DNA of 11,632 bases, taken from assembly GCA_048938295.1 (NCBI GenBank), contig JBHLMI010000047.1:1-11632 (forward strand), read 5' to 3'. Of the stretch, positions 1,594 through 3,476 are shown piece by piece. The notes under the pieces are model-generated. The model searched no databases. It saw only the letters and a program-made list of their open reading frames with translations, and was not told the origin of the DNA. The position numbers were made by a program, and so were the translations under genes. The DNA comes from Promethearchaeota archaeon. Its GTDB lineage: Archaea; Asgardarchaeota; Hermodarchaeia; Hermodarchaeales; Hermodarchaeaceae. How positions within the stretch are numbered: the first letter of the stretch is position 1; the number at the start of each line of letters is the position of its first letter.

Positions 1594-1608
1594 CAAAATA
1601 GTTAAAAG
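1594..1608 (+). promoter_or_regulatory. Putative BRE/TATA promoter for the tRNA-Met/tRNA-Thr pair
   Basis: CAAAA-TAG-TTAAAAG about 23 nt upstream of tRNA-Met. Confidence 0.5.
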
Positions 1609-1630: not shown

Positions 1631-1814
1631 GCCGAGGTAGCTTAGCCTGGTTGAGCGCCAGACTTGTAACCATTCGTGGGATATTAGGGCGATACTCATA
1701 GGGCTTTGCCCCAGGGTCAAAATATGATGATTGCTGGCGCACCGGAGAAATCTGGAGGTCGCGGGATCGAACTGAAGTCTGTAGGGCTTCACGAAATGCC
1801 CGCCCTCGGCACCA
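1631..1814 (+). tRNA. tRNA-Met(CAU), elongator type, with three introns: 30/31 (1662-1693), 37/38 (1701-1749), 59/60 (1772-1797)
   Basis: Acceptor GCCGAGG/CCUCGGC plus A-CCA, anticodon stem CCAGA/UCUGG, T stem GCGGG/CCCGC. Intron 1 has a full BHB (UGAG/CUCA, CGCC/GGCG, bulges AG|A and AU|A). Intron 2 has central helix CUCA/GGAG (one mismatch). Intron 3 has AUCG/CGAA (one mismatch) with outer helix UGAAGUC/GGCUUCA. G1-C72 and no three-GC anticodon stem argue against initiator. Confidence 0.88.
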
Positions 1815-1827
1815 TTTAGTCTGTTGA

Positions 1828-1904
1828 GCCTCGGTGGCATAGCGTGGTAGCGCATCGCCTTGGTAAGGCGAGGGTCGCGGGTTCAAATCCCGCCCGAGGC
1901 TCCA
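1828..1904 (+). tRNA. tRNA-Thr(GGU), intronless
   Basis: GCCUCGG/CCGAGGC acceptor, UCGCC-UUGGUAA-GGCGA anticodon arm, GCGGG-UUCAAAU-CCCGC T arm, U73-CCA. Confidence 0.95.
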
Positions 1905-2885: not shown

Positions 2886-3476
2886 CTATTTTTCAGCAAC
2901 AATATCAGCAGGGGATACAAGATAGTACGTTGTTTCCCCCTGTCGGTCTAACACTGCAAGCATCAATTTCTTCCGGTTACGTTTCGCTTGTTTGCTAAAC
3001 GCATCCAGCTCTTCCACCTTCAAGGGAGAACCCTCAGAAATCGCGCAAACAAAATACTGAGCAGTTGCCTCATTGAGTTTAGCGCCTCTAGGATATACGC
3101 GGAACAACAATCCTTTCCCATACCCCGTCCGCACTACATATCCTCGGCTTCGAAGATCACTGTATACAAGAAAACGAGTCCAAAGACCCGGATGCCCCTC
3201 TGATAAGCGCATCAGCAGCAAAGAAAATTCCAGCTCCTCCTTTCGTGGCAGACTCACCGCTATACGCTGTCGCCGAGCCAATAATAGCGCCTCTTCAGGC
3301 TCAAGTTCTAATTTCTGCTCACCCTTGAGCGTACCATAATACCCCGCCTCATACAACACAGACGCATACTCACCTTCCACCACCACTTTCCCCCGAATTA
3401 GTCTCGCCGGAATAGGTTCATCAGGGAGCGGAAGGCGCTCCTCTTCTGAAAATCGATCCTCATTTTCCTCTGCCAT
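2886..3476 (-). CDS. endA: tRNA splicing endonuclease subunit, probably the structural (non-catalytic) subunit
   Basis: EndA family motifs YYG..., LEPEEALLL, VYSDLRSRGYVVR, RKKLMLAVLD..G..TYY. The catalytic His position is Thr138 and the KFGxDF motif is degenerate. Confidence 0.9.
   Translation of the reverse strand: MAEENEDRFSEEERLPLPDEPIPARLIRGKVVVEGEYASVLYEAGYYGTLKGEQKLELEPEEALLLARRQRIAVSLPRKEELEFSLLLMRLSEGHPGLWTRFLVYSDLRSRGYVVRTGYGKGLLFRVYPRGAKLNEATAQYFVCAISEGSPLKVEELDAFSKQAKRNRKKLMLAVLDRQGETTYYLVSPADIVAEK

Follow-up and report, generated by a model that had tools for sequence, protein, structure and literature searches.

The stretch of DNA analysed here (11,632 nucleotides, the window) encodes, at positions 1631–1814 of the forward strand, an elongator tRNA-Met(CAU) whose T-loop, after excision of three introns, reads AUCGAAG, with A54 and G60 replacing the near-universal U54 and pyrimidine 60. 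The locus exemplifies a recurrent and apparently undescribed trait; it represents a known molecule in variant form and no new system. A review describes U54 as universally conserved save in the eukaryotic initiator (PMC7912444); Westhof extends the exceptions to eukaryotic tRNA-Ala and a small number of others (PMC7566577). A literature search that did not extend to subscription journals and may have missed older mentions yielded no paper dealing with A54 in the tRNAs of archaea or phages. On comparative evidence, the gene probably specifies a working elongator tRNA with an A54–A58 pair, tolerated once a purine occupies position 60 and convergent with eukaryotes. The A54 loop recurs as an alternative form of the tRNA elbow and does not indicate a role at start codons.

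The gene was delimited by in-silico splicing and ARAGORN, and 15 orthologues lie at the equivalent place. Unspliced, it was missed by both ARAGORN and Rfam because of its three introns; the spliced 77-nt cloverleaf, with G1-C72, A73 and an encoded CCA, is called tRNA-Met(CAU) by ARAGORN, and all its stems are perfect. The D-loop (1644–1652) has an extra base, 17a (C16 C17 U17a), and U21 in place of the usual A. A at position 21 is conserved in tRNAs generally; at this position (window 1652) there is U here, C in the sister genus and A in two species. A 32-nt intron at 30/31 (1662–1693) forms a strict BHB with 4/4 central pairs, and is followed by a 7-nt second exon (1694–1700) housing the anticodon CAU (1696–1698) and by the canonical 37/38 intron of 49 nt (1701–1749), whose BHB is relaxed (3/4 central pairs). 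The unspliced arm would give the anticodon UGU (Thr), a reading set aside on account of the strict BHB of the 30/31 intron and of the absence of that intron in relatives, where the anticodon exon is contiguous with exon 1 and the arm is unbroken. The sequence-only reading had assigned the gene to elongator Met, and both the spliced CAU cloverleaf and an acceptor that matches elongator Met in DPANN and other Asgard genomes bear this out; the body with G1-C72 and A73 differs from those of the initiator and of Ile(CAU).

In the T-arm, the 5′ strand of the T-stem (positions 49–53; 1761–1765) pairs fully with 1799–1803, the derived base A54 (U in nearly all tRNAs) lies at 1766, and a 26-nt intron at 59/60 (1772–1797), present in 16/16 family orthologues, precedes G60, which is the first base of the last exon (1798) and is ancestral in the family. 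The BHB of this intron has 3/4 central pairs (A54 faces A), 6/6 inner and 3/3 outer pairs; the CGAA at its end pairs with loop bases 55–57 and mismatches A54. When all eight cut positions leaving a 7-nt T-loop were scored over 16 orthologues, 59/60 was the only one to give a full BHB together with a conserved mature loop, with means of 3.9 central, 5.6 inner and 3.0 outer pairs and at least three central pairs in 16/16. Other T-arm registers were discarded, since only 59/60 combines central, inner and outer helices. The register test agrees with the loop as first read, with A at 1766 and G at 1798, and the contrast then drawn with the window's four other tRNAs also holds: Thr, Arg(CCU) after splicing, Tyr and Asp all have UUC(A/G)AAU. 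The tRNA-Arg(CCU) gene (2747–2869), interrupted by a 59/60 intron and with an insertion in its D-loop, is itself missed by ARAGORN and Rfam.

From the genome, that of an Asgard archaeon of Ca. Hermodarchaeia (G000; 91.6% complete), 40 tRNA genes were parsed, and two of these have the anticodon CAU: the tRNA-Met gene at 1631–1814 and an ordinary initiator with the loop UUCAAAU (C47:76913-76990). A second elongator Met gene, the absence of which had been named as a point to check, was not found among the 40. A role in elongation is indicated because this gene is the only candidate and because its body has G1-C72, C50-G64 and G51-C63 and no run of three G-C pairs. Among the parsed genes A54 is unique to tRNA-Met, and G60 is common to tRNA-Met and an intron-less tRNA-Leu(UAA). 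The latter, with U54/G60, lies on the minus strand of C35 at about 35270–35360, is missed by ARAGORN, and is conserved across Hermodarchaeia. The second Met call made by ARAGORN, on C44, was rejected as an elongator Met gene: it is Ile(UAU) once introns are removed. This tRNA-Ile(UAU) (C44:26169-26314) has two introns, and in it the G19-C56 pair, near-universal in tRNAs, is replaced by A19-U56, a compensatory exchange. An Ile(CAU) gene was not found in the genome, and for this reason the AUA codon may be read by tRNA-Ile(UAU).

The window also encodes the structural (beta-like) subunit of the splicing endonuclease (2886–3476, minus strand; Pfam and NCBIfam). The catalytic EndA-family subunit, with Tyr/His/Lys motifs, is encoded on contig C1, giving two EndA-family genes in the genome; the two-subunit type of EndA cleaves non-canonical introns (PMC5829648). 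Genes for Pus10, a TrmY-like protein and TrmI are present. Loss of the enzymes acting on position 54 was rejected as the cause of A54, since Pus10 and TrmY-like genes are found in five A54 genomes.

Comparison of 16 GTDB orthologues from the family (15 beside the window copy) allows the order of changes to be read. The exons of tRNA-Met are nearly invariant and the introns drift. G60 is present in 16/16 and stays constant while the adjoining intron bases vary, and U54 is found in 14 of the 16; the idea that A54 and G60 arose as two concerted changes has accordingly to be given up. Nor do the close relatives all carry UUCGAAU, given that all 16 have G60 and several relatives have A54. On these alignments G60 appears old in the family and A54 young. 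A54 occurs also in L266 (this species, assembled independently), in G001, which is a sister species, in L267 and L037 (relatives of G001) and in L257; the further assemblies with A54 number at least five, and A54 is known from at least two species. Because it is present in independent assemblies and in a sister species it is not an error, as the sequence-only reading had also argued on other grounds. A tree built from the flanking DNA places G000, G001 and their A54-bearing kin in one clade with 100/100 support, nested within U54/G60 species; L257 is not part of this main clade, and a grouping of all A54 genes was rejected (p-AU 0.029). A54 has thus probably arisen twice within the genus, and recombination could be an alternative source of the A54 in L257.

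A54 is younger than the 59/60 intron, as had been proposed, for relatives combine this intron with U54. CGAA is indeed the end of the intron, but this says little for pairing with an ancestral UUCG: members of the genus with U54 have CGGA at this point, CGAA being a derived state that occurs with A54 in the main clade. The change from CGGA to CGAA converts a U55-G wobble to a U-A pair; since L257 combines A54 with CGGA, CGAA is not a required compensation for A54. The suggestion that the intron came from another tRNA does not hold for any recent time, an intron of matching length being at the site in 16/16 family orthologues. The possibility that G60 is a by-product of the 59/60 intron was also rejected: U60 is found in five other genes of the genome that have this intron, and G60 in intron-less ones. 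Members of the genus differ in whether they have the 30/31 intron. L037 lacks it though nearly identical to G001, which points to a recent precise loss or to recombination.

A survey of Met T-loops across the Asgard phylum, proposed at the outset, showed A54 in many elongator Met genes. Of 91 distinct genes parsed, 38 have A54, 16 have C54 and 37 have U54, counts which are neither frequencies nor phylogenetically independent, part of the set having been sought by the A54 pattern. Judged by these sequences, U54 with pyrimidine 60 is not a defining feature of elongator Met in Asgard archaea, since many orthologues depart from it. A purine is found at position 60 in 27/33 genes with A54 and A58. 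In Heimdallarchaeaceae, 16/16 full elongator Met genes that were read have A54, and nine of the 16, mostly without a T-arm intron, have AUCGAAA, the loop of the eukaryotic initiator; Ca. Heimdallarchaeum aukensis and H. endolithica are among the species with AUCGAAA. One subgroup of the family has AUCGAGU, with A54 and no purine at 60, and other families labelled Heimdallarchaeia have U54. AUC(G/A)AAG is found in the elongator Met of five further families, including Lokiarchaeia-like and Helarchaeales-like groups and a large family, which we infer to be Thorarchaeia, where C54 is the commonest state. C54 opposite A58, the usual elongator Met state in that one large family, is present also in a Lokiarchaeia-like family (C54 genomes: L108, L109, L118-L120, L124-L130, L211-L214 and L216). 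Intron-less genes encode AUCGAAG and AUCGAAA directly.

Beyond elongator Met, A54 was absent from roughly 70 other tRNAs read in H. aukensis and G121, and elsewhere in Asgard archaea it occurs also in Ile, Thr(GGU), Ala and Tyr. Every Asgard initiator seen, those of Heimdallarchaeaceae included, has U54 and a pyrimidine at 60. In a second class of T-loop, A54 lies opposite U58, reversing the 54–58 pair; this class is found in Thr(GGU) and elongator Met (L069, L107, L228, L232, L237, L242, L244, L246, L247, L248 and L251) and also in phage arrays, and it has a short D-loop and mostly a pyrimidine at 60. This class and the AUCGAGU subgroup show that A54 does not strictly demand a purine at position 60.

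Outside Asgard, the archaea sampled were Methanobacteriota, a DPANN phylum and a Thermoproteota-like phylum. No A54 or purine 60 was seen in the 150 arms listed from 101 Methanobacteriota genomes, bar one evident chance match, and 151 genomes of the DPANN phylum gave no true A54 and one elongator Met with G60. The 141 genomes of the third phylum, which is taken to be Thermoproteota because a type IB topoisomerase gene adjoins one of the tRNA genes, gave about 20 Met-like arms with U54/A60 and six verified A54 elongator Met genes, five of them with A60. AUCGAAG is also frequent in phage tRNA arrays (IMG/VR contigs), mostly in initiator-type Met and in Pro. A54 as an Asgard-specific feature is ruled out by the Thermoproteota-like genomes and the phage tRNAs; the loop is specific neither to eukaryotes nor to Asgard. 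The 199-kb IMG/VR record L318 has 12 A54 arms, and the phage arrays L338, L348, L350 and L355 have A54 loops in many genes. Three apparent A54 hits of the survey (L271, L286 and L373) were set aside as chance matches.

Where the D-loop is unbroken, base 17a accompanies A54/G60 in 29/30 Asgard genes, whereas of the A54 genes in which position 60 is A or a pyrimidine 0/26 have it. On viral contigs it accompanies A54/G60 in 25/31; the genes are related, so p-values computed from these counts overstate. An A54–A58 pair with an extra D-loop residue and purine 60 has been described in eukaryotic tRNA-Ala (Westhof 2020, PMC7566577).

The body of the molecule is that of a known class. Archaeal elongator tRNA-Met genes with BHB introns, of the kind known from two reports (Valentin-Alvarado 2024, PMC11291895; bioRxiv 10.64898/2026.10.13.758758), share with this gene G1-C72, A73, CAU, and 37/38 and non-canonical introns, but here A54 and G60 replace U54 and a pyrimidine, and U21 is present. 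Multi-intron, heavily interrupted Asgard tRNA genes are already on record, and single copy and a two-subunit EndA in the genome are further shared features. A54, G60 and the T-loop are not mentioned in the preprint, nor raised in tRNA passages of PMC11291895.

With the eukaryotic cytosolic initiator tRNA-Met the molecule shares A54 opposite A58, a purine at 60 and the methionine anticodon (PMC3950347, PMC10602860). In that initiator A54–m1A58, A60 and A20 form a network (PMC3950347, PMC10602860), whereas here there are G60 and U20 and bases 17 and 17a; G1-C72 stands in place of A1-U72, and A29-U41, G30-C40 and A31-U39, as in an elongator body, in place of three G-C pairs. By sequence the tRNA lies outside the eukaryotic initiator class, from which it departs in three of four sequence tests. 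The distribution is also mirrored: in Asgard archaea A54 belongs to the elongator and not to the initiator, and in eukaryotes the reverse is true. The original description of the loop as eukaryote-like is sound only for the likeness itself, since the loop recurs in other archaeal lineages and in phage tRNAs and is absent from Asgard initiators. The closest functional precedent, by analogy, would be eukaryotic tRNA-Ala(AGC), which is likewise of elongator type with A54–A58, purine 60 and an extra D-loop residue (Westhof 2020, PMC7566577). It differs in that here G15 goes with C48 (no R15-A48), C16 is not a purine, A59 is not a pyrimidine, and C3-G70 is present and not G3-U70; the tRNA-Ala pairs are stated to be unseen in bacteria or archaea (PMC7566577). 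The phage-encoded AUCGAAG tRNAs share the loop and mostly base 17a, but they are mostly initiator-type Met and Pro, or of many isotypes per array, and are intron-less and accessory rather than essential.

A working scheme may be proposed in which the two-subunit EndA would remove the three BHB introns, the A54/A mismatch being tolerated like the mismatch at the 37/38 intron, and MetRS would charge the product. A54 would pair with A58 in a trans Watson-Crick/Hoogsteen purine–purine pair, as in yeast initiator tRNA and insect tRNA-Ala, and U55-G18 and C56-G19 would hold the elbow shut; U55, C56, G18 and G19 are all intact. The A54–A58 pair is longer than T54–A58 (PMC7566577). A59 and G60 are predicted to stack within a core widened by D-loop base 17a, and it would be purine 60, housed by this larger D-loop, that lets the core accept the longer pair. 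Purine 60 would thus have been fixed first, after which the change from U54 to A could be nearly neutral and recur. A54 placed in yeast tRNA-Phe disturbed the fold (PMC10602860), and tolerance of A54 therefore depends on context. Position 54 would escape modification by Pus10 and TrmY, and A58 would still be open to methylation by TrmI. In yeast, A54 permits m1A58 without prior T54 and pseudouridine 55 (PMC10602860), and by analogy such independence is a possible benefit of A54 here. The mature tRNA would be delivered to internal AUG codons by aEF1A. Structure alone leaves the preference for elongator Met as the carrier of A54 unexplained.

That preference, with repeated origins concentrated in one isotype and three outcomes at position 54, might instead reflect positive selection, either for escape from elements that target tRNA 3′ halves (integrases, TnpB guides, tRNA nucleases) or for tuning of an essential single-copy Met tRNA through loss of modification at 54. 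The wide use of A54 in phage tRNA arrays, and the TnpB genes that adjoin the tRNA-Met/tRNA-Thr pair here and in related genomes, fit such a view. The TnpB element of the window, however, occupies the promoter rather than the tRNA and is lacking in A54 relatives; the 59/60 intron already splits the DNA target in all family members; and U54 relatives persist. Selection seems rather unlikely. The exact AUCGAAA loop in Heimdallarchaeaceae, and the fact that elongator and initiator Met tRNAs are served by one synthetase, raise the further question of whether the eukaryotic initiator loop could be descended from an Asgard elongator Met loop, for instance by T-arm conversion between Met genes in the host lineage. 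Against this, all Asgard initiators seen keep U54 and pyrimidine 60, other families labelled Heimdallarchaeia have U54, eukaryotic elongator Met has U54 (PMC3950347), and a loop that evolves so easily and so often makes a seven-base identity weak evidence; descent is very unlikely. It is quite unlikely, too, that in the Asgard host lineage A54/A60 first appeared in elongator Met and was passed to the initiator in eukaryogenesis, which would make the Hermodarchaeia genes a living intermediate series with purine 60 first and A54 second.

An elongator tRNA with a tolerated A54–A58 pair also has to be weighed against readings in which the molecule is something else. In yeast initiator tRNA, A54 and A60 tune start-codon accuracy (PMC3950347), which would suit a second or alternative initiator; with a normal initiator at C47:76913-76990, and a cell that would be left without elongator Met, this is highly improbable. 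It is hardly credible that the mature tRNA is an ordinary one arising through another splice register or through RNA editing. A cut at 60/61 would indeed leave C, U or A at position 60 in the orthologues, but it has about 1/4 central pairs and yields four different loops, against two for 59/60; no register restores U54, the intron-less genes encode their A54 loops directly, and A-to-U editing of archaeal tRNAs is not known to us. A draft metagenome assembly, a non-standard base 21 and a mobile element in the promoter might suggest sequencing error or a decaying pseudogene. The chance of this is close to negligible, given A54 in the further assemblies and species listed above, perfect stems, a promoter that is intact in A54 relatives, and the lack of any other elongator Met gene among those parsed.

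A54 and C54 are thus seen in archaeal tRNAs that are essential and single-copy; they have arisen there many times and mostly in elongator Met. The natural series lets the order of changes be read, and the simple rule that G60 goes with D-loop base 17a is open to testing, while the origin of the eukaryotic initiator loop becomes testable. There is also a warning, that an A54 loop alone marks neither an initiator nor a eukaryotic origin.

The tRNA-Met gene is followed by a tRNA-Thr(GGU) gene (1828–1904, forward strand) with the ordinary loop UUCAAAU, and the two are probably co-transcribed. A TATA-like box upstream of the pair (1602–1607, forward strand) is conserved in the genus on comparison with relatives, and is presumably an archaeal promoter element; a scan for bacterial promoters, which does not cover archaeal ones, gave no match. 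An IS605-type TnpB element (about 174–1601, with tnpB at 191–1495 on the minus strand) sits in this promoter, between an upstream purine-rich element and the TATA-like box and beside TTTAA on the minus strand. The insertion is found in this species only (G000, L266) and is absent in the six relatives compared. Other mobile genes occur at the tRNA cluster in relatives (L258-L260, L257 and L268), where a gene for a 449-aa Cas12f/TnpB-like protein lies just upstream of rpiA and LAGLIDADG genes lie upstream of the tRNAs.
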